In this document: piece by piece, positions 39-22,992 of the stretch
Numbering within the stretch: the first letter of the stretch is position 1
How the letters are laid out: every line of letters begins with the position of its first letter
Made by a program: the position numbers and the translations under genes
Notes under the pieces: model-generated
The model's input: the letters and a program-made list of their open reading frames with translations, nothing else
Database searches by the model: none
What the model was told of the DNA's origin: nothing
Assembly (NCBI GenBank): GCA_937922045.1
Contig: CAKZXA010000032.1
Coordinates: forward strand, 7,710 to 71,709
DNA: 64,000 nucleotides
Direction of reading: 5' to 3'
Source: an uncultured Acidimicrobiales bacterium
Lineage (GTDB): Bacteria; Actinomycetota; Acidimicrobiia; Acidimicrobiales; SZUA-35

Positions 39-932
39 TCAGGCCGATCCCTCGACGCGTCGCTGAGACCGGTAGACCGCCTGGGCCGCAATAGTTTCCG
101 GTTCAGCGAGGAAGGCTTCAATGTCGGTGTTTCGGGAGGATGGTGTTGCGGCGTCGGTTCGTTGGGCTCTGCCCTGTGCGCCGTCGGAGTGAATCCGGAC
201 GTTGAGAGTGGTGCGATCGATAGCGTTTGCGGCCAGACCCAACCGGTGTTCGAGGTCGGTCAGCACCCGTTCAGAGCTCTCGACAAGATCCTCGTATCGA
301 ACGCTGACCAGACGATGATCGTTGAACGCAGAAAGCTCAAGGGTGTTCTCTCGCCAGAGCTTCAGTGCATCCAAGGTCCACTGGTGTTCCCAATGGTTGT
401 CGGCATCGGCCTCCCACCGAAGAAGCGACCGTACGACATCATCGAGGTCACGGTTGATCACGACTACCTTCGCCTGCGGGAAGAGTCGGAAGAGCCGTTC
501 GATGTCCACCCGTCGATGTCGAACCTCCTTGAATCCCCACCGCTTCGTCGGAACGCCGTTCGGTGCCGTGCCGTAGAGATCGTAAAAGAGGCGACGAAAG
601 GCACCGTCGGTCTGCTCCTGTTGGGGCGAGAGGTTCGCTACGAAGGCGTTGGTGTCCCATCGCTGCCACTCCGAGTGAGCGGACCCATGAAGATGGCCCC
701 AGTCGACCAGAGCCTTATGGGAGGCGAGCAGGGTGGTCGACGCACCGGCGTTTTCTCCCCAGATGAAGACGTCGTCAGCCGAGTTGAGAAGTCGCTGAAC
801 GAGCGTTGACCCGGTTCGGTGTGAGGCTCCAGCGATGAAGATCGGACGCTGATTGAGCTGTCGCCTGGCGAATTGCCGGTTTGCGGCTAGCTGTGTCCTC
901 TGGAGGAGGCTTGGTTCGTTCGAACCTGTCAC
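39..932 (-). CDS. Sulfotransferase family protein (PAPS-dependent type)
   Basis: 297-aa ORF with a GTG start at 932 that overlaps the upstream stop by 4 bp (GTGA). It has a P-loop-like 5'-PSB-type motif (IFIAGASHRTGSTLV) and a 3'-PB-type motif (VVINRDLDDVVRSLL). These are the two PAPS-binding signatures of sulfotransferases. Confidence 0.75.
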   Translation of the reverse strand: MTGSNEPSLLQRTQLAANRQFARRQLNQRPIFIAGASHRTGSTLVQRLLNSADDVFIWGENAGASTTLLASHKALVDWGHLHGSAHSEWQRWDTNAFVANLSPQQEQTDGAFRRLFYDLYGTAPNGVPTKRWGFKEVRHRRVDIERLFRLFPQAKVVVINRDLDDVVRSLLRWEADADNHWEHQWTLDALKLWRENTLELSAFNDHRLVSVRYEDLVESSERVLTDLEHRLGLAANAIDRTTLNVRIHSDGAQGRAQRTDAATPSSRNTDIEAFLAEPETIAAQAVYRSQRRVEGSA

Positions 933-2194
933 TGAAGACTCCAGGCGGAGGAGACAGCGAGAGGGCCAACGTACCGGATGGCTAGATCTTCGGGCAAGGT
1001 GTGTTTGGTTTCTAGCGAGAATTGAACCGCATGTTCCTTTACGTCGAAGTTACTTGATTCGTCGCCGAGCCAGGCCGAGAGCGTGTAGGCCCCGGAGAAC
1101 AGAGGAAGATCGTCGACCTCGAGTCGATAGGTTGCCTCCTGCACCGCGTCGGGCGGTAGGCCGTCGATGGCGCTTCGGTCCGGATGCATCCGCGTATTTG
1201 ATGTGAACACAGGCTGCATGCCACCGGCGTAGACGATGACGCCAGGCACCGCTTGAAACGGGTAGGACGACGAAAAACTGATGTCGACAACAACCCGGCC
1301 ATATTCGAGCTGGGTTGGGTCGATGACCACCCGGGTAATTTGGGGTGTTGGGCGCTCGTCTATCTCATAGTCGACCGTTGTGCTCGAACGGCGGCTGCCG
1401 CGATGGTAGAAGGCGAGGGCATCGTCTACACCGTCGAACATGACCGCCTTGCCGTCGGCGATGACGGCGGCCCGAGTGCACAAGCGTTGAACCAGCGATG
1501 AGTTGTGGCTTACAAAGATGATCGTAGTTCCCTCCGCAGCCAGGCTCGACATCTTGTCGATGCACTTTGCCTGGAAGCGGACGTCGCCGACGGCGAGGAC
1601 TTCGTCGACGGCCAAGATCTCGGTGTTGAGGTGGGCGGCGACGGCGAATCCGAGCCGAACATACATGCCTGAGCTGTAGCGCCGCACCGGGGTGTCGATA
1701 AACATGCCGCAATCGGAGAATTCGATGATTTCGTCGAGTCGGGCTGAGACGTCACGGCGGGTCATCCCCATGATCGTGCCATTGAGGTAGATGTTTTCTC
1801 GGCCCGTCAGCTCGGGATGAAAGCCGGTGCCGACCTCGAGCAAGCTAGCCACTCGACCCTTGGTCAAGATCCGCCCCCGCGTCGGTGTCGTTATGCGCGA
1901 CAGAACCTTCAGCAGGGTTGACTTACCGGCACCGTTCGGCCCGATCAGGCCGACGACGTCGCCGCGGTTGATGGACATGTCGACACCTTGGAGCACCCAG
2001 ACATCACCACGACGTGCCTCCGCAGGCCCCTGGTTGACGACCCCACCGATCGGATCTCCGCGACGGAGCAGACGAGCCCAGCTGCGTCGGACATCGTCAG
2101 CCAGCGTGTTGGAACCAAATTCGCCAAGCTGGTACTTCTTCCAAACATCCTCGACGACGACCATCGTGTCGGCGTTTGATGGTGAGGCGCTCAT
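929..2194 (-). CDS. Polysaccharide/teichoic-acid-type ABC exporter ATP-binding protein (Wzt/TagH-like) with C-terminal extension
   Basis: Walker A GPNGAGKST, signature-like YSSGMYVRLGF and Walker B ILAVDEVLAVGD. About 150 aa follow the NBD (aa ~265-421), as in Wzt proteins that carry a glycan-terminus-binding domain. ATGA overlap with the upstream permease gene. Confidence 0.9.
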   Translation of the reverse strand: MSASPSNADTMVVVEDVWKKYQLGEFGSNTLADDVRRSWARLLRRGDPIGGVVNQGPAEARRGDVWVLQGVDMSINRGDVVGLIGPNGAGKSTLLKVLSRITTPTRGRILTKGRVASLLEVGTGFHPELTGRENIYLNGTIMGMTRRDVSARLDEIIEFSDCGMFIDTPVRRYSSGMYVRLGFAVAAHLNTEILAVDEVLAVGDVRFQAKCIDKMSSLAAEGTTIIFVSHNSSLVQRLCTRAAVIADGKAVMFDGVDDALAFYHRGSRRSSTTVDYEIDERPTPQITRVVIDPTQLEYGRVVVDISFSSSYPFQAVPGVIVYAGGMQPVFTSNTRMHPDRSAIDGLPPDAVQEATYRLEVDDLPLFSGAYTLSAWLGDESSNFDVKEHAVQFSLETKHTLPEDLAIRYVGPLAVSSAWSLQ

Positions 2195-3069
2195 ATGGTG
2201 TCCACGAACTTTCTCTCGACCTGGTTAAAGGCCAGGAGGCCGATAGTGAAGACGACCAGAGAACTCGCCAGTGCGTAGAGTACGCCGCCCGCACTGGTTG
2301 TGCCCGTTCCGAAAAGGGCATGGCGAAAGCCTTCGATGACGTGTGCCACCGGGTTCAGACCTGCGATCGTTCGGTACCGCTCCGGAATGGCGGACAGGGG
2401 ATAGATCACGGGGGTTGCGTACATCAGGAGTTGAACGCCAAAGCCGACGAGATAGGCGAGGTCGCGGTACTTGGCCGTCATGGAGGAGATGGCCATGCCG
2501 ATGCCCAAGGCGGCAGCCGCCATGATCAGCACGAAGAGCGGGAGCAGGAGAAGTTGTGCCTGCACATCGAAGATGGGTTGGCGTAGCTGCATGTAGGCGG
2601 CCACGCTGAGCAGAAGGACGAGCTGAACGGCCAAGGTCAACCCGTTGGAGACGGCGGTCGCTATCGGCACGATCAGGCGAGGAAAATAGACTTTGCCGAA
2701 GAGGTTGGCGTTCTCGCGGAATGTGTTCGACGTCGACGTGAGCGTCGTTGCGAAGTAGGTCCAACAGGTAACCCCGCTCAGGTAGAACAAGACTTGGGGT
2801 ATGCCGTCGGTTGACAAATTGGCGATCTCTCCAAACACGATGGTGAAAATGCCGGTGGTCATGAGAGGTTGGATAATTAGCCAGAGCGGCCCGAGTATTG
2901 TTTGCTTGTAGCGGGCAACGAAGTTTCGCTTCGTCAGCATCGTCACCAAATCCCGGTAGGCAAGAACCTCTCGAATCGGTACGTCGAATGCCCCCCGCCG
3001 TGGGCTGATGACGAGTGTCCAGTCTTCCTCGGTGGTATCCATGTGCCGTGTCAGGATCCGATCTTTCAT
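2191..3069 (-). CDS. ABC-2 type polysaccharide export permease (Wzm/TagG-like)
   Basis: 292-aa multi-TM protein with an ABC-2 permease-like N-terminus (VLAYRDLVTMLTKRNFVARYKQTILGPLWLIIQPL). ATGA overlaps on both sides, with the GT gene upstream and the ATPase gene downstream. Confidence 0.85.
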   Translation of the reverse strand: MKDRILTRHMDTTEEDWTLVISPRRGAFDVPIREVLAYRDLVTMLTKRNFVARYKQTILGPLWLIIQPLMTTGIFTIVFGEIANLSTDGIPQVLFYLSGVTCWTYFATTLTSTSNTFRENANLFGKVYFPRLIVPIATAVSNGLTLAVQLVLLLSVAAYMQLRQPIFDVQAQLLLLPLFVLIMAAAALGIGMAISSMTAKYRDLAYLVGFGVQLLMYATPVIYPLSAIPERYRTIAGLNPVAHVIEGFRHALFGTGTTSAGGVLYALASSLVVFTIGLLAFNQVERKFVDTI

Positions 3070-5594
3070 GTTGGTGTGCCGGCCGAGCGCCTGGTCGCTA
3101 TGTCTTCAGCGAAACGATCGATCAGCCATCGCCGAACCCGCCAGATGGGGCTGGCGACTGCACCCGTCTGGCCCGCGACCGTAGCGAGATGGAGGCCTTC
3201 GTATACCACGCTGAACGCTGAGCCTGACGCCACTTCGCTCGGCGTGCTCGGATCGAGGAGATCGACGGACACGGCCGGGCTTACCGGCTCGGGTCGGTCG
3301 ACGTTGAAAGGGTTGTTCTTGGCTCCGACCGCAGCGGAGGCACCAGCCCAGTAGCTAGCAACGGACAGAACCCGGCCGGACCGCCGTCGTAGCTTTGTCG
3401 ACCTGGTGCGTCGCACAACGCTGGTGATGACAGGCTCCAGGCGTTGAAAGAGCGCTGGCCTCTTGCCAGCGAACTGGGCGACCCGGCGGCTCGTACCGCT
3501 TGCCGGCCACAGTTTTGTATCGATATGAGACGCATAGGAGGGAAACTCTGTCAAGATGAGCGCGTCGCCAAAGCCATCTCGCCAGAAGTCTTTCCTGCTG
3601 CTCGAACGATTTTCGTCACGCTGCACGACGCTGGCCCTTGGGGCGGCGACGACATGAACGCCAGCATCGATGGCTCGAAGGCCAAAGAGCCAGTCTTCCC
3701 GGCGTGGAATCTCAGGAAAGCGGCCGAGTTTGTCGAAAAGGGAACGAGGCAGCGACATATTTCCCGTGCAGACATCGGGGAAGCCCAAGGCGGGCTCAGT
3801 TCGCAGGCGATCGGTGTGATCCACCCACCAGTTGCGCCCCGCCACACCGAAACTACCGACGCCGCGGTGGTCGACCAAGGCTGGTCCGACGACGAGCACG
3901 CGGTCGTCGCCAACGGCCTGTGCTGTTGAACGGTGGGTCAGAAGGTGCTGGGTGGCGAAATCATCGAGCTTGACCATGACATCGTCGTCGAGAAAAAGCA
4001 CATAGTCTTCACGTACGGCTCGTACGCCTGCATTTCGTGCTGCTCCGGCACCACTACCGTGCTCTAGGTCCTTGGAATTTGGGTCGAGCTCGACCACACG
4101 AAGCCGCTCTGAGCCGTCGGCTTTGGCGAGCCGGGTCAGGGTTGCGACGGTGCCGTCGATATCGCCATCGACCGCCACAACGACGGCAGAGACATCAGGC
4201 AATGAGAGGACCCGTTCAGCGAGGGCCACGACCTGCCCACTTCGACCGCGTGTAGGAATGACAACGGCTAGTGAGGGCAGCGGTTCCGAGCTGCTGCGAG
4301 CCGCTGACGATTGGCGGAGCCAGGGTGCTGGCATCTCCCACTGGCGTTGGAGCACAGGAGTGCGCTTTGCGCACATCGCCGCTGAGCGTCGATAGGCCAG
4401 CGGGCTCTTCGCCACGCCCTTGAGCTCGGCCAGAACGAGGTGCCGAGGCAAGGCGCCAGATTTACCAGAGCGATAGTCCGACAGGGTCTGGCGATGCCAC
4501 GTTGCGGTGTTGCGCATCTTGCGTAACGTCGCTTTCCGGTGGCCATCGTGCCAAAGGGTTCGCCAGTTCAGGGCCCAGACCCCGGTGGCATTGCTGGTGA
4601 ACATCTTCACCAGAGATTCGTCATCGTCTCGATGCCAGTGGCGAGCGGTTGACAACGGTTCGTAGGTCACCCGATAGCCCGCATCGAGAACGCGACGATA
4701 CATCCACGTGTCTCCGCCGGTGCCTGTTGGCATCCCGGCATCTAACTCCTCGGGAAAGCCGCCGGCAGCGAGGGCGAACTGTTTGCGAACCGCCATGGCC
4801 GCCCCGACGCCGGGCGTCGACCAATTGCCTGAGGCAGGGCGGTGTTCAGGAAAGAGATGAGGCCCGTTGTAGACGCGAAAGGCAAAGCCGCGGCTATGAG
4901 AGCAAAATTGTTCCGAACGAACCTGGGCCTCGGTCGACAAGGCGGCTGGCAGCACCAGGCCGGCTGTCGCCATCACCAGCGGATCTCGAAAACCATCGAC
5001 AAGCCAACGATCCCAGCCGTGCCGGATCTCGACGTCATCATCGGTGAACAAGACCAAATCGGAGCTGGCCTCGAGCAGGGCTCGATTGCGGGCCCGGTCG
5101 AGGCCCGGGTCGGGTTCGCGCACATAGCGAAAGCCGAACCCTTCGACCGTTGCCTTGATCACCGGGAGATCCTTCCGGCTGTTGTCCACGATGATGACTT
5201 CTTGGCAGAGAGCATCGAGGTTCTTCAGCGAAGCCAGACAGCGCTCAAGCGATTCAGGGCGGTCGGCAGTGCAGACGGCGACGGAATAGGACCCGAGCGA
5301 GCTATCGAACCAAGGCTCGGCGACCGCCGCCTTGGTCAGCTCCGCTCTGGCCAAGCCAACAGGGTGATGTTCGGCGAAGAGATTGCGGACCTTCGGGACA
5401 TCGAGTTGTGGCGTGGTCGGCCCAATGATCAGCGTACCGATGGGAACGTCATGCCACCATCCGGTGACATGGGCAAGGCGATGCTTCAAAGCGATGGTTT
5501 CGGCCGTCGGGCCAACCTGTGGATCGAGGCGAATATCCAACACGTCCATCGGCTCTTGGAGGGCTAGCTCACCAATGGTCTTGGCGATGATCAT
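3066..5594 (-). CDS. Large dual-domain family-2 glycosyltransferase (candidate glycan polymerase of the ABC-dependent route)
   Basis: 842 aa with two GT-A/GT2-like modules. The first has SVAVCTADRPESL ... IIVDNS ... FTDDDV. The second has LAVVIPTRGRSG ... VAVDGDIDGT ... FLDDDVMV. It is the first gene of the coupled GT-wzm-wzt-sulfotransferase operon. Confidence 0.8.
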   Translation of the reverse strand: MIIAKTIGELALQEPMDVLDIRLDPQVGPTAETIALKHRLAHVTGWWHDVPIGTLIIGPTTPQLDVPKVRNLFAEHHPVGLARAELTKAAVAEPWFDSSLGSYSVAVCTADRPESLERCLASLKNLDALCQEVIIVDNSRKDLPVIKATVEGFGFRYVREPDPGLDRARNRALLEASSDLVLFTDDDVEIRHGWDRWLVDGFRDPLVMATAGLVLPAALSTEAQVRSEQFCSHSRGFAFRVYNGPHLFPEHRPASGNWSTPGVGAAMAVRKQFALAAGGFPEELDAGMPTGTGGDTWMYRRVLDAGYRVTYEPLSTARHWHRDDDESLVKMFTSNATGVWALNWRTLWHDGHRKATLRKMRNTATWHRQTLSDYRSGKSGALPRHLVLAELKGVAKSPLAYRRSAAMCAKRTPVLQRQWEMPAPWLRQSSAARSSSEPLPSLAVVIPTRGRSGQVVALAERVLSLPDVSAVVVAVDGDIDGTVATLTRLAKADGSERLRVVELDPNSKDLEHGSGAGAARNAGVRAVREDYVLFLDDDVMVKLDDFATQHLLTHRSTAQAVGDDRVLVVGPALVDHRGVGSFGVAGRNWWVDHTDRLRTEPALGFPDVCTGNMSLPRSLFDKLGRFPEIPRREDWLFGLRAIDAGVHVVAAPRASVVQRDENRSSSRKDFWRDGFGDALILTEFPSYASHIDTKLWPASGTSRRVAQFAGKRPALFQRLEPVITSVVRRTRSTKLRRRSGRVLSVASYWAGASAAVGAKNNPFNVDRPEPVSPAVSVDLLDPSTPSEVASGSAFSVVYEGLHLATVAGQTGAVASPIWRVRRWLIDRFAEDIATRRSAGTPT

Positions 5595-9002: not shown

Positions 9003-10030
9003 TTCGACCGGATGGTTGGCAGGTCTTGGGCTGCTCCGAGAGTGCGATGCTCCACCCAACTAGGGGTCGCGATCGACAAGGCATCTGAGCGTAGACGACC
9101 CGGCCGAACCGCTAGCTTGGTGTAGCCGGCGAGGGTGCCGACGGCACGAGCTGCGGCTAGAAGTCGCGATCGGATACCGCCGGCAGGCACGGTGAGGTGA
9201 TCGGTGCGCAGGCCGATGAGGGATGCGAACTTGAAGGCTGTGTAGCGAGCTGTGTAGCGATGCCATTTCTTCAAGGTTGGACTCTGCATCGCGAGGAGCA
9301 GTGGGCCGGCCTCTGCGAGGCGGTAGTTGAGCCTGAGAAGATACCCAAACCCGAGCCGCGACTCGTCGATGGTGTGGTGGAGACGACAGCCGGGAGCAAA
9401 CCAGACGCCACCGCCGTCGCTCGCCGCCCTGGCTCGGGCCGCCAGCTCGTTGTCGCCGCCGGAGACGAGGCTCTTGCCGCGACGATCGGGTGCCATGGGG
9501 GCATCCAACCAGCCGGAACTGATGACTGCATCCCGTCGCAGGGTGATGCCGGCTCCATGCAGAGATTCACGCTCGGTTTCGACGTCCTCGGCCGGGCCGC
9601 CTGCCGCGAACATCTCGGGATGGATCCACGGTCGCTCCACACCATCGTCCATGTGGAGGACGTTTCTGCCGTTGAATCCAGCAGCGTCCGGACGGTGGGC
9701 GATATAGGCCAGCGCTTCGCTAATCCAGGCCGGCTCAGGAACGCAGTCGTCATCGATGAAAGCCACCCAGGGGGCGTCGGTCGCCCAGAATCCTCGCTGC
9801 CGAGCCTCGGTCAAACCCTGGCGAGTTTCGGCCACGATCCGCAGGCTGGGAAGCCGTTCCATGTAGGAGTTGACGAGCTCGACGGTTCCGTCGGTGCAGT
9901 TATTGTCGATCACCGTCACCGTCCACGAGCCATCATGGGCGGCGCCTTGTATGGCTAGAGCATCCAACGTCTTCACGAGCAGGTGTGCTCTGTTGTAGGT
10001 GCATACAACCACATCGATAAGTGCGTTCAT
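8999..10030 (-). CDS. Family-2 glycosyltransferase
   Basis: Motifs IDVVVCTYNRAHLLVKTLDAL, TVIDNNCTDGT and FIDDDCV. I trimmed the start to the ATG at 10030 (TAATG junction with the upstream gene). Confidence 0.85.
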   Translation of the reverse strand: MNALIDVVVCTYNRAHLLVKTLDALAIQGAAHDGSWTVTVIDNNCTDGTVELVNSYMERLPSLRIVAETRQGLTEARQRGFWATDAPWVAFIDDDCVPEPAWISEALAYIAHRPDAAGFNGRNVLHMDDGVERPWIHPEMFAAGGPAEDVETERESLHGAGITLRRDAVISSGWLDAPMAPDRRGKSLVSGGDNELAARARAASDGGGVWFAPGCRLHHTIDESRLGFGYLLRLNYRLAEAGPLLLAMQSPTLKKWHRYTARYTAFKFASLIGLRTDHLTVPAGGIRSRLLAAARAVGTLAGYTKLAVRPGRLRSDALSIATPSWVEHRTLGAAQDLPTIRSK

Positions 10031-11175
10031 TATCGCCGTACCGTTTCGAGTGCGCGCGCCTTGGCCGAGGCTACGAGTTCGTTGGAGCCGCCGCGGAGAA
10101 TCCGACCCCGCGGGTTCTGCCACATCGAATGATAGAGATCGGCCATGGCGGTATCAGTAAAGGACAAGGCGATCTGGCGGCCAGCTTCTCCGATCCGATG
10201 AGCGAGAGCCGGCTCCTCGAGAAGAGCCTTGATCGCAGGAGCAAAGCCGGATAGGTCTTCGCCCTCCATGATGAATCCAGTTTCACCGTCGGTGACGGCG
10301 TCACGAACGCTGCCGACAGCACTGACCACAACGGGAACACCGAGGAGCATCGCCTCGACCATGGCGAGAGGGAATGCCTCGTTTCGCGATGGCAGGACAA
10401 AGGCGTCGAAGCCAGCTACCAGGCTGGTCGGGTCGTCCTGCCATCCTAGGAAATGAACGCGATCGTCCACGCCCAGACTCCGAGCGGACTGGGTGAGGGC
10501 TGACCGTTTTGATCCATCCCCGATGAGGACGAGATGTGCGCCTTGTTCAAGGCTGGCGAAGACCGGTAAGAGACGATCGAGACCTTTCTGGTCTTCGAGG
10601 CGTCCTACGAATCCGAGCACAGGGTCATCGGCTAGTTGGGGGACGAGCGCTCGCAAGACGTCCGGACTGGTCTGGACAGGAACGGGAACGCCGTTGTGGA
10701 TCGTGCGAACCGACCCTTTCGGCAGTCGGAAATATTCTTCGACGGCATCGGAACTTTCAGACCCGACCGAGACGTGGTCGTGGAGTAGCCGCGACACGGC
10801 GTGCTTGACCAGTATCTCCCGAGGGGTCAGACGGCGAACCAGCTGCTCGACGGCGATGGTTGGAATGCCCAGCGAAATCGCAGCGATCTGTGGTGCTAGG
10901 GCCGCTCCAGGATTGCAGAGTGTGACCTGGAGGAGGTCAGGCCGATGGCGCGTAAACAGGGTACGGAATCCTCGAATCTCTGCTGCCATGTTCGACGTTG
11001 GGCCCTCGATCAACTCGACGTCGCACGAGACGCGTTTTGCCAGCTCGTCGACGGCCACGCAGGGGCGGCCTAGGAGCACGAAGTCGACCTTGTCCCCGGT
11101 GGCGGCCACGAGGTTCGCGACCGATTGCTCAGCCCCGCCATAGCCATCTCCGTCGACGCAGAGCCCGATGATCAC
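10030..11175 (-). CDS. Family-4 (group 1) glycosyltransferase
   Basis: The GT-B core has VIIGLCVDGDGYGGAEQSV at the N-terminus and a C-terminal EAFPLAMVEAMLLGVPVV motif. The proposed GTG start at 11175 forms a GTGA overlap with the Wzy-like gene stop. The upstream 311 aa of the 693-aa ORF are Arg/Pro-rich read-through. Confidence 0.85.
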   Translation of the reverse strand: MIIGLCVDGDGYGGAEQSVANLVAATGDKVDFVLLGRPCVAVDELAKRVSCDVELIEGPTSNMAAEIRGFRTLFTRHRPDLLQVTLCNPGAALAPQIAAISLGIPTIAVEQLVRRLTPREILVKHAVSRLLHDHVSVGSESSDAVEEYFRLPKGSVRTIHNGVPVPVQTSPDVLRALVPQLADDPVLGFVGRLEDQKGLDRLLPVFASLEQGAHLVLIGDGSKRSALTQSARSLGVDDRVHFLGWQDDPTSLVAGFDAFVLPSRNEAFPLAMVEAMLLGVPVVVSAVGSVRDAVTDGETGFIMEGEDLSGFAPAIKALLEEPALAHRIGEAGRQIALSFTDTAMADLYHSMWQNPRGRILRGGSNELVASAKARALETVRR

Positions 11176-12371
11176 ACGTGAGCCGTTCGATTGAGTGACT
11201 GGCCCTCGTAGGAGTCGCGCTGTCGGGAAGCCTCGGTGGCCTCCTTCAAAAGGCCACACGAAAACCACCAGAGCCAACCGACGAGAGTCCCTGACGCGAA
11301 CCCGATAGCGATGGCAAGAATGAGAGACGGAGGACTTCGCCGGAGCCAGGCCCAAAGAATGCTGAGCAGCGTGGTCAAACCCAACAGCCCGAACTCGGCC
11401 AGGGTGTTTGCGAAGATGTTCCACGAACCGCCTGAGCTGAGAATACGAGGATCCAACAAGGTGAGTTCGCCTTGACGTTGAATGTCGGCCAACCGAATGG
11501 CGTAGTTCCCCGGGCCAACACCGGTAACGATGTTGTCCTCGGCGAGCCGGATGCCGGCTTGCCAGCTGCCGACGAGGCGGCCCGAGCTCGAGGCATCCTG
11601 TTGGGCCCCGCCTCCGGTGGTTTCGACCAGGCGTTGCGCCACGCGGTCCTCGAAGACCTGACCGACTGCGGGGATGGTCAGTACTGCGAGGGCGAACACC
11701 ATGACACCTGCGACAGCGGCCCCGATCATCCGGGGCTTGATCACACCACGTTTGACCGAGAAGACACCGCACATCAAGAGGGCGAGTGCTATGCCCGAGA
11801 GCGAGGCTGCCAGAGCCAACAACACAGCGCCAATGGCAAGGTCCGAACGTCGCAGTTGGCGATGAAGGTAGAAATACGACAAGACGACAACGACGAAGAT
11901 CGCAAGCGTTGAGGGTTCGCTGAACAGGGCCTGCGTTCGAGGGAATGAAGACCTGTCCCACCTGCCCGCCTGATAGGCCCGCAGGACTGGTGACGTCATA
12001 CCGAGCCGGTGGGCGGTCTGCTGGGCCAACGACATGGCAAGGTTGATCGAAAGGAGTATGCGAAGTATGCGAATGAACTCTGTAGAGCCAAAGTCGCGAA
12101 TGTAGTTCCACATGCAGAGCAGACCGGACCAGTAAAGGCTCATCTTTGCGAAGAAGAGGATCGATTCGACGGGGCTTGAAAGGCTGTTGCTCATGCTCAT
12201 CAAGGCACTTAGCCCGGCCGCAGCGAAGAAGACGCCGAGAGAGCGCATTCCTTTAGGGATCACGAGGCCTCGTCCGGTGGATCCGATGAACCAGAGGCCG
12301 ACCCCGAGCGCCAACAGAAGGTCGCCGGTGACCAGGACGGCAGGACCGATCAGCCGGCGCGACGCAAACAC
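11172..12371 (-). CDS. O-antigen polymerase/ligase family membrane protein (Wzy-like)
   Basis: 399 aa with about 10 hydrophobic segments and a large loop (RLVGSWQAGIRLAEDNIVTGVGPGNYA). This matches the O-antigen ligase/Wzy_C family pattern. Confidence 0.7.
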   Translation of the reverse strand: MFASRRLIGPAVLVTGDLLLALGVGLWFIGSTGRGLVIPKGMRSLGVFFAAAGLSALMSMSNSLSSPVESILFFAKMSLYWSGLLCMWNYIRDFGSTEFIRILRILLSINLAMSLAQQTAHRLGMTSPVLRAYQAGRWDRSSFPRTQALFSEPSTLAIFVVVVLSYFYLHRQLRRSDLAIGAVLLALAASLSGIALALLMCGVFSVKRGVIKPRMIGAAVAGVMVFALAVLTIPAVGQVFEDRVAQRLVETTGGGAQQDASSSGRLVGSWQAGIRLAEDNIVTGVGPGNYAIRLADIQRQGELTLLDPRILSSGGSWNIFANTLAEFGLLGLTTLLSILWAWLRRSPPSLILAIAIGFASGTLVGWLWWFSCGLLKEATEASRQRDSYEGQSLNRTAHV

Positions 12372-12489: not shown

Positions 12490-14850
12490 TCAGCTTGCTG
12501 GACTGTCCGTCAGCAGCGACGTCTGATCTTCGCCCGCTTGGTCGCCACTAACCAATCCAGCATAGAACGCAGCCGTGGCCTTGCCTATCGACGACCAGGA
12601 GAATGAATCCAGCCCGGGATCGCCCAGCTCGGTTTGGGTCTTGGCTAGGGCGGTGTCGATAATCTCGGCTGTGAGGTCGCCGCTGTAGAGCTGTATCCAG
12701 TCTGCACCGATGGTGTCGGCCAACTCTGGCAGCGAGCCAATGTCGGGGGCTAGAACCGGGCAACCGTAGCCGATCGATAGCAGGACTGAACTCGAGTTTG
12801 TGATGGATTTGAAGGGAGCGACGAAAAGGTCGGCCGCCGACAAGATTTCTGCCACCTCGTCGCTCGGGACATGCTTGGGCAGGAGGCGAACGGACGAGGA
12901 TCGGGCCGCGATCGTCTTCAGACGATCGACTTCGCCTTCGTCCCTGGGGCTTCCCCCAATTATGGCGACCCACCGGCGCGGAGTCGTTGCCTCGTCGCTG
13001 TCGGCAGCCTCTGCCGCCGCAACGACACTGGCGAGACTTGCTTGATTCTTGTAGGACCGAATCTGGCCGATGTTGGCCAGGAGAACATCATCAGGTTCGA
13101 TGCCGAGAGCGGTTCGAGCCTGCTGGCGATCTGTGGCGTCAGGGTATTCGGCGTCGTGATCGCCGAGTGGGATGGTTGTCGTCGCTATCTGCGCCAGCTC
13201 GGGATGCCGGTCCAACGTCTCCCGAAGGGTGAAGTTAGAGGGGGCAATGATGCCGGAGAGCAGGGCACGGAAACGGGCAAGGTACCACCGCGACACCCGA
13301 TCGTCGGCGATCTCGTGAGGATCGACGTTGTGTACCGTCCAGACGATCTGAGCGCCCCGTGCCTTCTGGATGCCGAGAAGGGTGAGAACGGCCATGCATC
13401 GAACGGCGCGGATCGCTGAGGAGTTGGCGAGAAGGGCGAACTCAGGCCAATGGACATGGACGATCCCATAGCGGCCGAAGATGGCGGACTTGACGCCGAA
13501 CTCGTCGGTGGTGAAACCCTGCGTTCCCGTTGCTTCCTGCAGGCTGTAGGTGTACGGGTTCTCGTCTCGCTTGCGGATGGCGGGCCAGGCCAGAACCTTG
13601 TCGTCGACATTGTCTGGGCCGCCTCGACCAGCAGCGTAGAGCCAGATGGGGCCGGCAATCCCGATGCCGAGAGCGAACCCCCAGCCAGCACCTTTGGCGC
13701 CAGCTAGATAGCCGCCAACGAGAACCGGAACGATCGCCGATGGCAGGAGGAGGGTTCGAATCAACACGATCTCGAAACCGCGGCCCCGGACTCGGAGCAC
13801 GGTACCTGCCACGAGATGCAGAGACGTCAGGGCCATACCCAACATGACGGGGAAGGCAGCCGGCTTTGCATACTGCCATGTGTCGCCCAGAACTAGCTCG
13901 CCAGCAAAAAGGACCAGAGCGTAGTTCAGCATCATTACCACGGCGGCAGCGCCAGCCAGACCGGCGGTAACCGATGCAAGGTAGTTGATCCGCGCTTGGC
14001 CGTCGGCGAGGTCGCGGTAGCGGGCTGCATCGGAGAGGATTCCCAAACGTAGACCGCCGACGAGCGTACTGAGTGGCCCGGCGAGCACCAGAGCGCCGCG
14101 GAAGCCGGCTGATTCTTCCAGCGTCGTAACCAATGCGATGAGATAGGCGAGAGCGTGAACGCTGACGGCGATGAGGAGTACCTCGACGAGGAGTGGACGG
14201 CCCAAGACCTTGAAGCGTTCCCACTGCAGGGTTGTGTTGCGTTCGATGCCAACGATGGCGCTCGACACTGCACCGGCACAGAGGGCGGCCAGACCGAGAG
14301 CGAGAATGGCTGGAACCATGGTTAGTGAGCCGAGCAGGTAGAGAGCGCCGATCAGGATCCCGAACGAGACCCACCAGGCGATGTTGCCGACCGTCAGCTC
14401 AAGTTTGCGCCCTTGGGCGATATTGGCTGCTCGCACCCCATCGAGCAGAGCTACCGCTGGCGCAACGACGGCAAAAGCGGAGAGGGAACGTCCAGCGATA
14501 TTGTCTCCAAGTAGAAGACCAGCGACGAAGGCGACGACCGCGTAAGGGGCGATTCTGCGTACGAGCAGTTTCGCCAGCGAAAACGGGATGCCCGACCGTT
14601 CCGTATAGGCACTTTCGGCGAAGTCAACGAGGTAGGGCTCGATGATGGCGGCCCGCCAGCAACCCCAGCAAACGAAGAAACCAAGAGCCGAGAAGCTGTA
14701 CAGGGCGAAGTCCGCGGCCAAGAGTTGATTGGCGACGATCATGGTCAGGGCCAAGCTCAGTGCACTTTGAGAACCCTGATCGATGAGCGCAGCAGCAAGG
14801 TCACTTAACCGCTGAACACCGGACCCGACCGACCGAGCATCGTCACCCAC
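12490..14850 (-). CDS. Fusion protein: Wzx-like polysaccharide flippase (N-terminal, ~430 aa, multi-TM) plus glycosyltransferase domain (C-terminal, ~350 aa)
   Basis: Single uninterrupted 786-aa ORF. The N-terminal half is polytopic and resembles the oligosaccharide flippase family. The C-terminal half has soluble GT features (NPYTYSLQEA, IVHVHWPE, VWTVHNVDPHE, and a group-1-like C-lobe with CPVLAPDIGSLPE). Confidence 0.7.
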   Translation of the reverse strand: MGDDARSVGSGVQRLSDLAAALIDQGSQSALSLALTMIVANQLLAADFALYSFSALGFFVCWGCWRAAIIEPYLVDFAESAYTERSGIPFSLAKLLVRRIAPYAVVAFVAGLLLGDNIAGRSLSAFAVVAPAVALLDGVRAANIAQGRKLELTVGNIAWWVSFGILIGALYLLGSLTMVPAILALGLAALCAGAVSSAIVGIERNTTLQWERFKVLGRPLLVEVLLIAVSVHALAYLIALVTTLEESAGFRGALVLAGPLSTLVGGLRLGILSDAARYRDLADGQARINYLASVTAGLAGAAAVVMMLNYALVLFAGELVLGDTWQYAKPAAFPVMLGMALTSLHLVAGTVLRVRGRGFEIVLIRTLLLPSAIVPVLVGGYLAGAKGAGWGFALGIGIAGPIWLYAAGRGGPDNVDDKVLAWPAIRKRDENPYTYSLQEATGTQGFTTDEFGVKSAIFGRYGIVHVHWPEFALLANSSAIRAVRCMAVLTLLGIQKARGAQIVWTVHNVDPHEIADDRVSRWYLARFRALLSGIIAPSNFTLRETLDRHPELAQIATTTIPLGDHDAEYPDATDRQQARTALGIEPDDVLLANIGQIRSYKNQASLASVVAAAEAADSDEATTPRRWVAIIGGSPRDEGEVDRLKTIAARSSSVRLLPKHVPSDEVAEILSAADLFVAPFKSITNSSSVLLSIGYGCPVLAPDIGSLPELADTIGADWIQLYSGDLTAEIIDTALAKTQTELGDPGLDSFSWSSIGKATAAFYAGLVSGDQAGEDQTSLLTDSPAS

Positions 14851-14860
14851 CAGCAGTTAC

Positions 14861-15901
14861 CTATCCGCCGCTGGTGGCTTCAGCTGCTGAAACCCCTGTT
14901 GCAAGGGTTCGCTTGACGGCAGCGATTGCCTCCTGTGCCGCCTCTGAAGTGTTGGTGTTCAGTCGTGACCGAAGCCGCGATCTGTAGGGGGCAATGGCAG
15001 CAAGGCAGGCCATGGGAAACGATAGTGATCCTGGACTGTTCCAGGCGTGACTTAGGGCCGAGCGATAGTTTCCGGTACGCCACAATCGTTGGGTCACCCA
15101 ACCGTCTACCGGTTCGAACCGAGGTGCTGGTTGAGCTTCTCGCTGGGCTGTGTGCTTTGAGCGGATCAGCCCGAGCTCGTTGTTGATCTTGCTCATGTCC
15201 ATGCTCATCTGCTCGGCGTGGTGAACGTAGAGGGTGCCGTAATCTGGCCAGACCGCCGGGGTATCGACTTCGGCGCATCGGATCCAAAGGTCCCAATCTG
15301 CAAACATCGAAAAGCGAGGATCGAAATAGCCAACCTCGTCGAGGAGTGCCTTCTCGACGACTACGGTTGAGCAACCTCCGGGTATCCGGTTCCCGATCAG
15401 TAGTCGCGTTCGAAAGTCTTCGGTCGGGGCCGCCCCGTTGTGGTAGAGGAAACGAAGGTTGTCGGAGACAACCGCTGCGTAGCAATAGGACCAGCGGCTT
15501 CCGTTGTCCTTCATCGCGGCAACCTGGCCGCTGATCTTTCCAGCTGACCAGAAGTCGTCGTCGTCGCAGACTGCAATCCATCTACCGGTCGCAACGTCGA
15601 TGGCCCTATTGCGGGCCGTCGCAACTCCCTGAGCTTGTTCGCTTCTCACGACCTTCACCCGAGGATCGTTGATCGAGGCAACGACGTCCGCGGTGTCATC
15701 GGACGATCCATCATCGCTCACGATGATCTCAAGATCTGGATAATCCTGAGCACGAACTGTCAGCAGTGTCCGCAACATGCGGTCACGCCGATTATGGGTT
15801 GGAATCACCACAGAGCAGGTCTGATTCATGTCCTGCCTCGTTTCACATCCATTGATACAAATCGGATCGTATACGGGATCTCGTCGCAAGATAAACCGCA
15901 T
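14861..15901 (-). CDS. Family-2 glycosyltransferase
   Basis: Motifs CSVVIPTHNRRDRMLRTLLTV, IIVSDDGSSDDT and VCDDDDF. It is the first gene of the minus-strand operon running 15901 to 7779. Confidence 0.85.
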   Translation of the reverse strand: MRFILRRDPVYDPICINGCETRQDMNQTCSVVIPTHNRRDRMLRTLLTVRAQDYPDLEIIVSDDGSSDDTADVVASINDPRVKVVRSEQAQGVATARNRAIDVATGRWIAVCDDDDFWSAGKISGQVAAMKDNGSRWSYCYAAVVSDNLRFLYHNGAAPTEDFRTRLLIGNRIPGGCSTVVVEKALLDEVGYFDPRFSMFADWDLWIRCAEVDTPAVWPDYGTLYVHHAEQMSMDMSKINNELGLIRSKHTAQREAQPAPRFEPVDGWVTQRLWRTGNYRSALSHAWNSPGSLSFPMACLAAIAPYRSRLRSRLNTNTSEAAQEAIAAVKRTLATGVSAAEATSGG

Positions 15902-17412: not shown

Positions 17413-19086
17413 GTGGCTGTCTATACTGACCTACGGTTGCTAAGGCGGCGATTTAAAAAGTCGGGCGAGCCGAGGTTATTCGTGGAAAATTACCCATTGC
17501 TTTCTGTGCTGCGTATGCAGTCCAAAAAGCGTGATCAAGTGTCGTCTAGTGTTGGCTTCAACGGGGGGCGTAAAAGTACGATTCTGATCTTCTCGATCAA
17601 TGCGGTCCTGGTCGGCGCAGCCTCGACACTCTCGACCGTGGCTGGCCCGGAGGTGTCGCCCAAGCTTGCGACATTGGCTGGCGTGTGCGTCCTGCTCTCA
17701 ATAGGGGCCGCTGGCCGATTTCGAACACGGATGGTCCCGGATCTCTCCGGACAGCTCCCTCGGCTGGCGCAGACGATTCTCGCTGGTCTTGCTTTTCCGT
17801 TCGCGATCCTGGCCGTGCGCGGTGTCGCGTATATCAATATCCAAGGGTTTGGCTTGCTGGCAGCGTCGCTTCTTGGTGCTGCCATCGTCGCCGATTGGTT
17901 ATCGGTCTTCCTCATTCGGTTCTTACGACACCGGGGGATGCTCCGTTCCCGGGCATTGCTCATCGGGAGCGGGTCGCTAACGAACGAGCTCGCTATCGAG
18001 CTTGAGCTCAGGCCCGACTACGGCGTCGATATTGTGGCGGTCATCGAGAACCCCAGCATGGATGAGGACGAGATCGTCGAGGAGATGACCGAGGCTCTCG
18101 TTCACTCCAACGCCGACCGAATCTTACTCGCTCCTATCGACGCCCCCTGGGCCAACCCGAACGCCGCGGTCGCCGCCGCTCGGGCAGCCGTAGGCATGCG
18201 TGTGCCGTTCTATGTTGTCCCGCGGCTCTATCAGTTGGGTGTCGGCCTCGACTCGATGTCGCCGGACCGAGCCCGGGGCTATCCACTCGTTCGACTTCAA
18301 CGATCAGCACACCCTCTCCTTGCGCTTCGCCTCAAGCGGATGATCGACATTGCGGTGGCGGGAACTGCACTGCTTATCCTCTCGCCGCTCATGCTGCTGG
18401 TGGCCGGGCTCGTGAAGATATCGAGTGCTGGCCCCGTCCTCTTTCGGCAACCTCGGGTTGGTGCCGGCGGCGAAGTCTTCGAGATGCTTAAGTTTCGCTC
18501 GATGCGTACCGCTGAGAACGAACATGCGGAATCGACCTCGGGCTATCGAGTCACTCTCGTCGGGCGCGCGCTACGAGCCCTCGCCGTCGATGAGCTTCCC
18601 CAGCTTCTGAACATCCTGCTCGGCCACATGACGTTGGTCGGTCCGCGACCCGAACGTCTCGCCTTCGTCGAGGAAGGCCTCAGCCTCCACTCTGGGTACG
18701 CCGCTCGCCATCGGATGCCGATGGGGCTCACCGGCCTTGCCCAGGTAGCTGGCCTCCGTGGTGAGGACACCAGCATCGAAGAGCGCATCAAATACGACAA
18801 CCTCTACATCGATCAGTGGTCACTGGTGCTCGATCTAGAAATCGTCGTCAAGACGGTGTTCGCCATCATCTTTCAATCTCGTTATCGGCAACAACAGAAG
18901 GCGCTGGACAAGGCGCTCGCCGACGTTGACGAGCATTCAATGGAACCGCTCGTCGGCGTCATGGCCTCTGATGGCCAACCAGATGTAGACCAACCAAGTC
19001 GTTTAGTCCGCGAAGAAGCTCGACCAGAAACGGCCCAAGAAGCGGCCCAATCTGAAGGATGGATATATGCAGATCGAAGTGCTTGA
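17413..19086 (+). CDS. Polyprenyl-phosphate glycosyl-1-phosphate transferase (WbaP/bacterial sugar transferase family), initiating enzyme
   Basis: N-terminal TM block plus a C-terminal catalytic domain (KRMIDIAVAG ... FRQPRVG ... KFRSM ... DELPQLLNILLGHMTLVGPRPE). The GTG start at 17413 is preceded by GGGAGG. The exact start is uncertain. Confidence 0.9.
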   Translation: MAVYTDLRLLRRRFKKSGEPRLFVENYPLLSVLRMQSKKRDQVSSSVGFNGGRKSTILIFSINAVLVGAASTLSTVAGPEVSPKLATLAGVCVLLSIGAAGRFRTRMVPDLSGQLPRLAQTILAGLAFPFAILAVRGVAYINIQGFGLLAASLLGAAIVADWLSVFLIRFLRHRGMLRSRALLIGSGSLTNELAIELELRPDYGVDIVAVIENPSMDEDEIVEEMTEALVHSNADRILLAPIDAPWANPNAAVAAARAAVGMRVPFYVVPRLYQLGVGLDSMSPDRARGYPLVRLQRSAHPLLALRLKRMIDIAVAGTALLILSPLMLLVAGLVKISSAGPVLFRQPRVGAGGEVFEMLKFRSMRTAENEHAESTSGYRVTLVGRALRALAVDELPQLLNILLGHMTLVGPRPERLAFVEEGLSLHSGYAARHRMPMGLTGLAQVAGLRGEDTSIEERIKYDNLYIDQWSLVLDLEIVVKTVFAIIFQSRYRQQQKALDKALADVDEHSMEPLVGVMASDGQPDVDQPSRLVREEARPETAQEAAQSEGWIYADRSA

Positions 19087-20428: not shown

Positions 20429-21460
20429 ATGAGAATACTCGTAACAGGTGGTTCAGGGTTTGTGGGTAGCCACACGGTGGCTCTCCTGCTCGACAAAGGA
20501 TTCGACGTCACCGTCGTTGACAACTATTCGAACTCACTGGTCGAGGCTGAAGGAGCCATCGAGCGCGTGGCATCAGCCCGACCCGAGTTCTGTCGCCTCG
20601 ACATACGCGAGACCGACGAGTTGCAACGAATCATGGCTCGGGTCGAGCCCGAGGTGATCATTCACTTCGCCGGCATGAAACACGTGGGGGAGTCCACCCA
20701 ACTGCCGCAGGAATACTACGACTGCAACGTTGGCGGGATGCTCTCGCTACTGACTGCAGCCAGAGAAACCGACACCCGCAAGATCGTCTTCAGCTCGTCG
20801 GGCTCTGTCTACGGCGAAACGAATCAACTTCCGATTCCTGAGAAACGCCCTCACGCTCCAACCAATCCCTATTCAACGACGAAGTCGGTTTGTGAACGGA
20901 TCCTTTCCGATTTGTGCACCGCCGATGAGTCATGGTCGGCGGTCGCCCTGCGCTACTTCAACCCGGCCGGAGCCCACCCATCGGGCCTGCTGGGCGAGTG
21001 GTGCGTTGGGCCACCGTCGAATCTGCTGCCGAGAGTGATCGAGGCCGCTGCCTGCGAGGATCCCGAAGATCGCAAGATGGTGATTCATGGCGACGACTTC
21101 GACACGCCGGATGGAACCGGGGTACGAGACTATGTCCACGTACAAGATGTGGCAGACGCCCATGTGCGGGCGATCGAAGTTCTAAACCAACCTGGATTGC
21201 CATCCGGTGGCTTTGAGGCATTGAACATCGGTCGAGGCCAGGGTGTGTCTGTGCGGGAACTGATCGTAGCCGTCGAGCAGGCATCGGGACGCGAGCTGAG
21301 CATCGAGGTCGGCCCACGCCGTCCAGGCGATGTTTCGGCGCTCTATGGCGACACATCCTTGGCAAGAGATCGGCTCGGGCTCGTCGACTACCGCGGACTG
21401 GATCAGATCTGTCAGGATGCGTGGCGGTTCAAGTCGATGCATCCGAACGGCTATACCTAA
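20429..21460 (+). CDS. galE: UDP-glucose 4-epimerase
   Basis: ILVTGGSGFVGSH, the SDR catalytic YSTTK (YxxxK), and LRYFNPAGAHPSG, which is typical of GalE. Confidence 0.9.
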   Translation: MRILVTGGSGFVGSHTVALLLDKGFDVTVVDNYSNSLVEAEGAIERVASARPEFCRLDIRETDELQRIMARVEPEVIIHFAGMKHVGESTQLPQEYYDCNVGGMLSLLTAARETDTRKIVFSSSGSVYGETNQLPIPEKRPHAPTNPYSTTKSVCERILSDLCTADESWSAVALRYFNPAGAHPSGLLGEWCVGPPSNLLPRVIEAAACEDPEDRKMVIHGDDFDTPDGTGVRDYVHVQDVADAHVRAIEVLNQPGLPSGGFEALNIGRGQGVSVRELIVAVEQASGRELSIEVGPRRPGDVSALYGDTSLARDRLGLVDYRGLDQICQDAWRFKSMHPNGYT

Positions 21461-22992
21461 GCGTTGCCCTCCAAGTGGGCGAGCTTGACCGATCGTCCAT
21501 CGGTTTCGAGTTCACCGTTCACGGTGCGAAGCGCAGCATCGACGCCAGGATCGACCGTTGGGTCAGTTCCCAGATCCAGCATCAGATCGCTGGTCGGGTG
21601 ATCGCGAGCAGCGCGCCGTAGCTCATCGGCAAACCGCTGGTACGACGCGAGCCAGAGGAGCCCTTGGGGTTCAACGCTGATCATGCCGTCTGGTCTGATG
21701 GTCTCAACGAGCTGCAAGGGACGGAGCAGATGGGCGATCGCCGAAAGGGCGATGCCGACGAGAACGGCCCATTGCACGTTAGGGGCTAGCGCCAGGGTGG
21801 CGGCGAAGGTCGTCCAGGCCAGGCCTGCGTGCATCCATGATCGTCTTCGCATAGAGGCAAGTTTTCTTGGCTGGAGAAGGCCCAGTACGGCGCCAACGAC
21901 GATGGCGCCCAGCACCGCTTGGGGGAGAGGATCCAGAACGCCGGCGAACGGCAGAAAGCAGAGAACAACAACGCCGGTTATGCCACCGCTCCACGTGGTC
22001 TTGGCTCCGGCCAGCCGATTGATCGAGCTTCTCGAAAACGAGCCTCCAACCGGGAAGCCACCGGAAACGGCGGCCGTTATGTTGGCCACACCCTGACCGA
22101 TCAATTCCTTATTGGCGTTCCACGGGATCGCGTCCTCCGCGGCATAGATGCGCGCTATCGACGAAGGCTCGGCGAATCCCACCAATGCAATCACGAGGCC
22201 GCCGATGGCAAGGGCGCCGAGAGCCTCGACAGAGATCGACATGCCTAGCGTTGGCATACCCTCTGGAATACCGGTCGGTTCACCGATGACGAGGCCGGGA
22301 TAGTCGACGGCTGAGGAGATAACGAGGCCGAGGATAACGGCCACCATGACACCGGGGAACAGGCGATGGAAGCGGCGACCGCCAAGCATGAAGATGAGTG
22401 TCATCGCTGAGATGAGTAGCGCCAGCACTTGCCACTGCTCGGGGTGGGTTAGAGCCCACAGTGCTTGCTCGAGCGTCGTGGTTTCGGGAACGAGCTCCGA
22501 AACCCCAAGGGCTTTGGGCAGTTGGGAGGAAAGGATTATGAGGGCGGCGGCCGAGGTGAACCCGATCATTACCGGCTCGCAGATCAGATAGGAGACCCAG
22601 CCCGCTCGGGCGAGACCGAGTCCGAGTCGGAATAGACCGACCAGCAGTGCGAGGACACCGGCCATGGCCACATAGTCGGGATTCTCGGACACGAAACCGG
22701 CGCTCTGCAGAGAGGCAAAGGTCAGCAGACTTGTGAGTGCGACTGGTCCGGTCTGCAGGTAGGGCGATGAGCCGAGGGGGGCGGCGGCGATGAGCGGAAG
22801 GGCTGATGCAAACAGGCCGGTGACCACCGGCATGTCGGCGATCTGGGCGTAGGCCAGCGATTGTGGGATCAAGACCAGTGCGACGCTAATCCCGGCGATC
22901 AGATCGGCGACATGAGGTCGGGCTGGTCCAACCCGTTGCCATATCGAGGAAGTCAAGACGACAACGGTAGCGGCTCGTACACGCACGATCAT
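21457..22992 (-). CDS. SulP family sulfate/anion permease with C-terminal STAS domain
   Basis: 511 aa. It has the SulP N-terminal signature (DLIAGISVALVLIPQSLAYAQIA), many TM segments, and a soluble C-terminal tail of about 100 aa. Its stop overlaps the galE stop region. Confidence 0.9.
   Translation of the reverse strand: MIVRVRAATVVVLTSSIWQRVGPARPHVADLIAGISVALVLIPQSLAYAQIADMPVVTGLFASALPLIAAAPLGSSPYLQTGPVALTSLLTFASLQSAGFVSENPDYVAMAGVLALLVGLFRLGLGLARAGWVSYLICEPVMIGFTSAAALIILSSQLPKALGVSELVPETTTLEQALWALTHPEQWQVLALLISAMTLIFMLGGRRFHRLFPGVMVAVILGLVISSAVDYPGLVIGEPTGIPEGMPTLGMSISVEALGALAIGGLVIALVGFAEPSSIARIYAAEDAIPWNANKELIGQGVANITAAVSGGFPVGGSFSRSSINRLAGAKTTWSGGITGVVVLCFLPFAGVLDPLPQAVLGAIVVGAVLGLLQPRKLASMRRRSWMHAGLAWTTFAATLALAPNVQWAVLVGIALSAIAHLLRPLQLVETIRPDGMISVEPQGLLWLASYQRFADELRRAARDHPTSDLMLDLGTDPTVDPGVDAALRTVNGELETDGRSVKLAHLEGNA

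Follow-up and report, generated by a model that had tools for sequence, protein, structure and literature searches.

The 64,000-nucleotide stretch of contig CAKZXA010000032.1 analysed here (the window), which derives from an uncultured marine bacterium of the Acidimicrobiales, carries on its minus strand a single open reading frame (ORF) in which a putative Wzx-type membrane domain is joined to a glycosyltransferase (GT) domain of the GT-B fold. A natural population carries this fusion in its genome. The product is probably a real bifunctional polypeptide, in which the GT would add a sugar to an undecaprenyl-diphosphate (Und-PP)-linked repeat unit and the membrane domain, a member of the MOP superfamily, would flip this unit for the polymerase Wzy. 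This reading is carried by the ORF, the folds of both halves, the topology prediction, the synteny with related loci and the selection acting on the N-terminal half, from which we infer catalysis and transport. What is new is the covalent joining; both component protein kinds are already known.

Reading frame, junction and topology

The fusion ORF of 786 amino acids (aa) plus stop runs uninterrupted over positions 12490..14850, as a preliminary description made from the letters alone had noticed, and lies on the minus strand. Its GTG start codon at 14850 is situated 10 nt past the stop codon of the upstream GT2 gene, and its own stop codon occupies 12490-12492. Both halves have strong independent homologues (BLASTP E-values of 2e-52 to 5e-83; phmmer up to 4e-75), and the ORF can therefore not be a product of chance. 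Residues 1-407 (13630..14850) form the Wzx-like membrane domain of MOP fold with 12 transmembrane (TM) helices, delimited by hydropathy, AlphaFold2 modelling, Foldseek, homologues and the positive-inside count. They are followed by the linker GRGGPDNVDD (residues 408-417; 13600..13629), which leads from the end of TM12 to the first beta-strand of the GT, and by the GT-B domain of a GT4-related subfamily, predicted to be cytoplasmic (residues 418-770; 12541..13599) and recognised by Pfam, Foldseek, a profile search against PDB and its invariant residues. An acidic C-terminal tail (residues 771-786; 12493..12540), with a predicted local distance difference test score (pLDDT) below 50 and outside the homologue alignments, is modelled with low confidence. 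The three motifs pointed out in the preliminary description could be located at residues 431-437 (NPYTYSL), 463-470 (IVHVHWPE) and 505-513 (TVHNVDPHE). Its division of the protein into two parts holds, but the sizes of 430 and 350 aa do not, the real division being about 415 and 370 aa. The full-length AlphaFold2 model reached a pLDDT of 89.9 and a predicted template modelling score (pTM) of 0.79, with values of ~77-85 pLDDT in the linker.

The join is placed in the 10-residue linker because the stand-alone membrane homologues stop at query residues 404-415 and the stand-alone GT homologues start, with their own residue 2-9, at query residue 418. The linker region contains neither a stop codon nor a homopolymer. 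As both halves share one reading frame, one indel could not have merged them, and since no in-frame ATG, GTG or TTG is present from residue 44 to residue 486, the GT half can be made only as part of the fusion; an internal restart for this half was rejected on the same ground. The fusion sequence is present in marine-metagenome runs of different samples, and the junction is spanned by Logan contigs of three runs (X1, X2 and X3, with word depths of ~20, ~15 and ~5.6, respectively) with zero indels, joints or substitutions at the junction. The contigs of X1 and X2 match the ORF exactly, save one synonymous change in X1, while the contig of X3 represents a divergent strain with 11 substitutions in 919 nt, in which the ORF is still in frame. 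A hidden assembly frameshift near 13500..13650, the interval which contains the linker and in which the preliminary description had advised to look for one, is excluded by the shared frame and the agreement of the per-run contigs.

Hydropathy and the AlphaFold models show twelve long hydrophobic helices within residues 23-407, followed by an alpha/beta domain. The TM cores are located approximately at residues 23-43, 46-66, 93-113, 120-140, 153-172 and 178-200 (TM1 to TM6) and at 218-241, 250-272, 290-316, 330-352, 361-381 and 388-407 (TM7 to TM12). When these twelve modelled cores are threaded with the N-terminus inside, 19 lysine and arginine residues fall in inside loops versus 2 outside, and the positive-inside rule predicts the topology of a Wzx protein, with 12 TMs and both termini cytoplasmic. 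The even TM count together with the inside position of the N-terminus puts the C-terminus inside, and hence the GT domain in the cytoplasm. Nucleotide sugars are found in this compartment. The periplasmic or extracytoplasmic GT-B domain that had been considered pending such a topology prediction is therefore rejected.

Assignment of the two halves and rarity of the fusion

When 1.84 billion representatives were searched exhaustively with phmmer, stand-alone membrane proteins of 415-438 aa were found that are 34-39% identical to the window protein over residues 5-415, and a profile search added ~30 further relatives of 397-461 aa, none of them with a Pfam domain; many members of this family carry the Joint Genome Institute (JGI) label 'O-antigen/teichoic acid export membrane protein'. 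The thresholds of the curated models PF01943, PF13440 and PF14667 or their NCBIfam equivalents are not reached by the N-terminal half. Among 34 family members scanned with Pfam at E <= 1, two gave weak Polysacc_synt_3 matches (best 1.2e-4) and one a Polysacc_synt match (0.11). The family profile searched against all PDB sequences had a sole match, which was WzxE (9g95; weak, colinear, E = 0.4). Since the top 50 Foldseek matches of the full-length model were GT-B proteins only, the N-terminal half was modelled and searched separately. The AlphaFold2 model of residues 1-415 (pLDDT 90.9, pTM 0.90) matched exclusively proteins of the MOP superfamily (MATE, WzxE, MurJ). The best E-value belonged to a MATE exporter (7e-7), and WzxE was found in five crystal forms with E-values from 2.6e-6, TM-scores of 0.60-0.65 both ways and ~425 aligned columns (for 9g9p, 9g9o and 9g95, E of 2.6e-6 to 4.7e-6 and TM-scores of 0.62-0.65).

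In their loci, the homologues of the N-terminal half have a Bac_transf priming transferase gene on one side and a Wzy_C polymerase gene on the other, with Wza and Wzc genes close by, and no second flippase could be found near them. The same context is present in the window, where Bac_transf and Wzy_C genes occur, the fusion is the only flippase candidate and no other MOP gene lies between 39 and 30564. Based on fold, topology and gene context, the N-terminal half is considered a putative, divergent flippase of the Wzx type. The term 'Wzx-like' used in the preliminary description is borne out by these three lines, though not by the Pfam Polysacc_synt models, which fail. In an alignment of ~35 homologues (A4), R140 and P259 are invariant, and D24, Q25, R251, G258 and W325 nearly so. 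Together with the window protein (13606-14850), these homologues make up a clade of 12-TM MOP/Wzx-like proteins for which no Pfam or NCBIfam model exists. Most members are annotated as hypothetical or with a COG-style label only, and flippases of this clade are consequently missed in standard cluster annotation.

For the C-terminal half, the Pfam model PF13692 (Glyco_trans_1_4) passed its cut-off (29.6 bits vs 27), while PF00534 stayed just under it (26.2 vs 26.4) and PF13439 under it (23.9 vs 28.5). The top 50 Foldseek matches of the full-length model, all GT-B, were led by GT4 enzymes (GlgM, MshA, BshA, PimB', WaaG, PimA). More than 140 of the 150 best phmmer matches were stand-alone GTs of ~330-400 aa, 29-39% identical over residues 418-770, and a subfamily profile built from 60 relatives retrieved GlgM (1.4e-22) and MshA (2.4e-16) from PDB. 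The motifs NPY, HxHWP, TVHNxxPHE, GxxRxYK and NS(G/S)S are conserved in this subfamily. All residues that are invariant in 59 stand-alone relatives (H467, P469, T505, H507, H512, G595, K601, G633 and S686) are kept in the window protein, as is every nearly invariant one. The G-x-x-R-x-x-K diphosphate block could be recognised, with G595, R598 and K601 aligning with GRITRQK of GlgM and GRLQPFK of MshA; the glycine and the lysine do not vary across the subfamily. The EX7E motif is absent: the segments 'YEPLG...LEA' of GlgM and 'NESFG...MEA' of MshA align to 'ilNSgs...LaL' of the subfamily and to 'SITNSSSVLLS' in the window, and its glutamates are replaced (NS(G/S)S...L) across the entire subfamily. 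For this reason the mechanism and stereochemistry of the GT half are not to be assumed. By fold and sequence, the C-terminal half is an atypical, GT4-related GT-B glycosyltransferase. The subfamily (window 12541-13599; alignment A5) is widespread, with 570 representatives at E <= 1e-30, a count that includes matches to the membrane half, and it appears to be uncharacterised.

No second protein matching both halves was found by phmmer among the 1.84 billion representatives, where such a protein would outscore every single-domain match. None was present in 5.8 billion clusters searched with a word index or in 185,579 species-representative genomes, the latter yielding only stand-alone GT relatives. 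The word-indexed searches with the full length or the N-terminal half gave almost nothing, probably because their list was saturated by hydrophobic words, and the exhaustive phmmer and profile searches were therefore needed. Uniqueness covers the homologues detectable from this protein, canonical Polysacc_synt domains joined to other GT families being outside this scope. Other long proteins with this GT were GT-GT or NTP_transf_5-GT fusions. Within these limits the fusion is a singleton and not a recurrent flippase-GT family. A full-text literature search returned no described fusion of a Wzx/MOP flippase with a GT, so that the impression of the preliminary description that this is not a characterised architecture agrees with the databases and the literature searched. 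A joint MAFFT alignment (A2), in which the full-length query was combined with 31 membrane and 44 GT homologues, misplaced membrane proteins on the GT half and was discarded; the alignment was correct with at most 7 GT sequences, and A3 was used in its place.

Origin of the fusion and competing explanations

In the four loci of the closest relatives that were open to inspection (L005, L006, L011 and the contig of P0045) the halves are encoded by separate genes of one operon. L006 contains the best homologues of both halves, P0011 for the membrane half and P0006 for the GT half, on one 22.7-kb contig, and in L005 the unfused pair consists of P0021 and a GT4. L005, L006 and the P0045 contig share the order GT2 - Wzx-like - methyltransferase - GT4 - methyltransferase - methyltransferase - Wzy; in these three loci a methyltransferase of ~260-275 aa intervenes between the membrane gene and the GT4 gene. 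Gene content is the same in L011, but the order differs, and the GT4 of this locus fits the subfamily profile with an E-value of 6e-118. Where the DNA was read, in L005 and L006, ATGA or TTGA overlaps couple the membrane, methyltransferase and GT4 genes. The order in the window is GT2 (14861-15901) - fusion - Wzy (11172-12371), with no methyltransferases, and a tblastn search of the window for remnants of the three methyltransferase genes was negative for each. In BLASTP, orthology-level similarity to the window genes was evident for the membrane protein, GT4 and Wzy of these loci. In a neighbour-joining tree, the N-terminal half of the window protein is located inside the clade of these relatives, every other member of which is unfused.

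Judged from these sequences, the fusion most likely arose within the operon: the methyltransferase gene between the flippase and GT genes would have been lost, together with the two after the GT, and the flanking ORFs, now neighbours, joined in frame. The event is probably recent and lineage-specific. The three or four methyltransferase genes that are interleaved with GTs in L005, L006, L011 and the P0045 contig suggest a heavily methylated glycan in the related loci, and the chemistry of the repeat unit probably changed along with the fusion.

In the bifunctional protein proposed here, the cytoplasmic GT would most likely use a nucleotide sugar to extend the lipid-linked intermediate by one sugar prior to flipping. 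The 12-TM domain would then most likely carry the completed Und-PP-linked unit across to the outer face for polymerisation by the adjacent Wzy. Through the 10-residue linker, the N-terminal domain of the GT, which binds the acceptor, would be tethered to the inner face of the membrane, a placement suggested by analogy with peripheral GT-Bs of the PimA, WaaG and MurG type that act on lipid-linked acceptors. A channelling, proofreading or other kinetic or quality-control benefit of the tether is unproven, as is the idea of the preliminary description that this GT carries out the last sugar-adding step, and the tether may only fix a pre-existing association of flippase and GT.

Strain-level variation bears on the question of whether both halves are in use. 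Among 30 substitutions in the ORF, 22 concern third positions and 19 are synonymous. The single-nucleotide polymorphisms (SNPs) of the N-terminal half comprise 13 synonymous and 2 conservative changes, giving a ratio of non-synonymous to synonymous polymorphism (pN/pS) of ~0.06, while those of the GT half comprise 6 synonymous and 9 non-synonymous ones, with a pN/pS of ~0.51 (Fisher p = 0.02 versus the N-terminal half; small numbers). The flippase half is clearly under purifying selection, the GT half less clearly so. Short low-depth variant contigs of X1 and X4, at 12905-13022 and 13102-13392, are ~3-4% divergent and carry mostly non-synonymous changes, located in the loop of residues 620-639, and the GT half seems to vary among co-existing strains.

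The difference between the halves would fit an explanation of the fusion as the scar of a deletion, neutral or mildly deleterious, with a functional flippase and a GT that became a dispensable passenger after methyltransferase loss and a change of the repeat unit. The singleton status of the fusion in every database searched points in the same direction, as does the remodelling of the locus, evident from the disappearance of all three methyltransferases of the syntenic block, and many other GTs of the cluster could cover the chemistry. We nevertheless regard this explanation as unlikely, since the GT half retains all invariant and nearly invariant residues of its 59 relatives, has a confident fold and is free of stops and indels in all strain variants; in addition, the SNPs are few, and several of the non-synonymous changes stem from the short low-depth contigs and their variable loop.

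A second alternative is that the N-terminal half is another MOP transporter, for example a MATE-like exporter, or a mere membrane anchor that localises the GT. It could be favoured for the missing Pfam and NCBIfam flippase matches and for the MATE transporter at the head of the Foldseek results, but it is very unlikely given that the family resides in Wzy-dependent loci between priming transferase and Wzy with no other flippase, that its sole PDB profile match is WzxE and its few Pfam contacts are Polysacc_synt families, that some of its members are fused to Wzy_C and that the N-terminal half is under strong purifying selection. The domain of ~410 aa with 12 TMs also has the dimensions of WzxE (PMC11706664). 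An assembly or sequencing artefact hiding a stop or frameshift between two genes is barely conceivable: the source is a metagenome assembly, and a single substitution would turn either of two codons within or adjoining the linker, R409 (CGA) and K418 (AAG), into a stop, but the contigs of three samples are identical at every junction base at the depths given above, the linker is free of homopolymers, a single indel is insufficient for halves that share a frame, and given a stop the GT half would still be without a start codon for 68 residues.

Several points weigh against a bifunctional protein or against parts of its proposed history. No flippase model of Pfam or NCBIfam matches the first 415 residues, even at E <= 0.1-1, and MATE exporters score as highly as WzxE in Foldseek; fold alone does not separate Wzx from MATE. 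The constraint on the GT half may be relaxed, its pN/pS of ~0.5 coming from only 15 SNPs. The junction is supported by per-run contigs rather than raw reads, and the gene was present in no RNA-seq run searched. The direction of change, methyltransferase loss here and not gain in the relatives, is a parsimony argument made in place of a rooted, resolved tree. Because the fusion is a singleton, conservation provides no argument for an advantage of the fused state.

How Wzx selects only completed repeat units, and whether it forms complexes with cytoplasmic GTs, is a matter of debate. In this context the fusion could be taken as a 'Rosetta stone', indicating that flippase and GT of this clade are normally complexed at the cytoplasmic face, where the unit completed by the GT would be handed over directly in a quality-control gate, an association that became covalent here. 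This idea is speculative and its chance of being right is small. If it is true, the interface between the two domains of the fusion would be seen again when unfused pairs (e.g. P0011 and P0006) are co-folded or co-purified. The fusion and the unfused orthologous pairs provide a concrete protein pair for testing a native flippase-GT interface, and the fusion is a convenient single-chain construct for structures of Wzx with an upstream enzyme. In addition, a clade of MOP/Wzx-like flippases that is missed by Pfam and NCBIfam could be defined, which has been fused with pathway partners at least twice (a GT here, Wzy elsewhere). As a singleton in an uncultured marine bacterium the fusion may bring no selective advantage, and its main value is that of a pointer to a testable flippase-GT association.

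Polysaccharide cluster and comparison with known systems

The fusion is part of a polysaccharide cluster at ~39-21460 of the window, which includes a priming transferase and, directly downstream of the fusion, the Wzy_C polymerase-like gene (11172..12371, minus strand), which is the flippase's partner in Wzy-dependent synthesis and shares 35-46% identity with its counterparts in the related loci. The upstream GT2 gene (14861..15901, minus strand) corresponds by synteny to the GT2 that L005, L006 and the P0045 contig have ahead of their Wzx-like gene. The Bac_transf priming phosphoglycosyltransferase is encoded at 17413..19086 on the plus strand, and its product would make the Und-PP-linked acceptor for the GTs and subsequently the flippase. 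Also encoded in this cluster (39-3069 and 21457-22992) are a Wzm/Wzt ABC-2 exporter pair, in which Wzt_C is part of Wzt, a sulfotransferase (39-932) and, at the far edge, a sulfate permease. The cluster combines two neighbouring export routes, Wzx/Wzy and ABC, and sulfation of its marine polysaccharide is possible. The ABC exporter genes are adjoined by the gene for a GT-GT fusion of 842 aa that contains two GT2 domains (3066-5594, minus strand); double-GT2 proteins beside an ABC exporter are typical of ABC-dependent polymerising GTs. The mechanically called ORF of 693 aa at 10030-12111 (minus strand) is an over-extension, of which only the C-terminal ~356 aa (10030 to ~11100) represent a GT4 gene, the upstream part overlapping the Wzy_C gene in another frame.

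WzxE of E. coli, the flippase for lipid III, the repeat unit of enterobacterial common antigen (PDB 9G95, 9G97, 9G9M-P), is similar to the membrane half in its ~410-425 aa and its 12 TMs arranged in an N-lobe and a C-lobe (PMC11706664). It shares the neighbourhood of priming transferase, cytoplasmic GTs and Wzy polymerase, as well as conserved arginines of the TM region, R140 and R251 here and the lumenal arginine pairs in WzxE (PMC11706664). In contrast, WzxE is only ~16% identical to the window protein and stands alone, with its GTs WecF and WecG as separate proteins.

The stand-alone pairs of the related loci are the closest homologues of both halves (35-39% identical) and lie in an operon with homologous GT2 and Wzy genes. 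They differ from the fusion in that the two proteins are unjoined and that two or three further methyltransferases, absent from the window, accompany them. The retaining GT-Bs of family GT4 (GlgM 6TVP, MshA 3C4Q, BshA, PimA/PimB' and WaaG) have the two-Rossmann fold and the GxxRxxK block in common with the window GT and are likewise cytoplasmic, and by analogy with PimA and WaaG the window GT probably works at the membrane surface. They possess the canonical EX7E, in place of which the window subfamily has the invariant His-rich motifs HxHWP and TVHNxxPHE. To our knowledge, no solved GT4 is joined to a transporter.

An extra domain on a MOP flippase for lipid-linked glycans is known from mycobacterial MviN/MurJ, in which a cytoplasmic C-terminal pseudokinase domain follows the last TM. 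That domain is regulatory (it binds FhaA) and not an enzyme of the same pathway, and the flippase is of the 14-TM MurJ type. Fusions of the Wzx-like family itself are found in five JGI metagenome clusters (P0171, P0172, P0174, P0176 and P0177) of 914-933 aa, in which Wzy_C (~residues 1-490) is followed by a full-length Wzx-like domain (~500-910; profile E-values of 1e-121 to 1e-133). The P0171-type proteins look, by sequence, like a single-chain polymerase-flippase architecture. As in the window, the same Wzx-like family is joined to another component of the assembly pathway; the partner is a polytopic polymerase located N-terminal to the flippase module, whereas it is a soluble GT here. Fusion of this family to Wzy_C in five clusters indicates that the flippase module tends to fuse with partners of its pathway.

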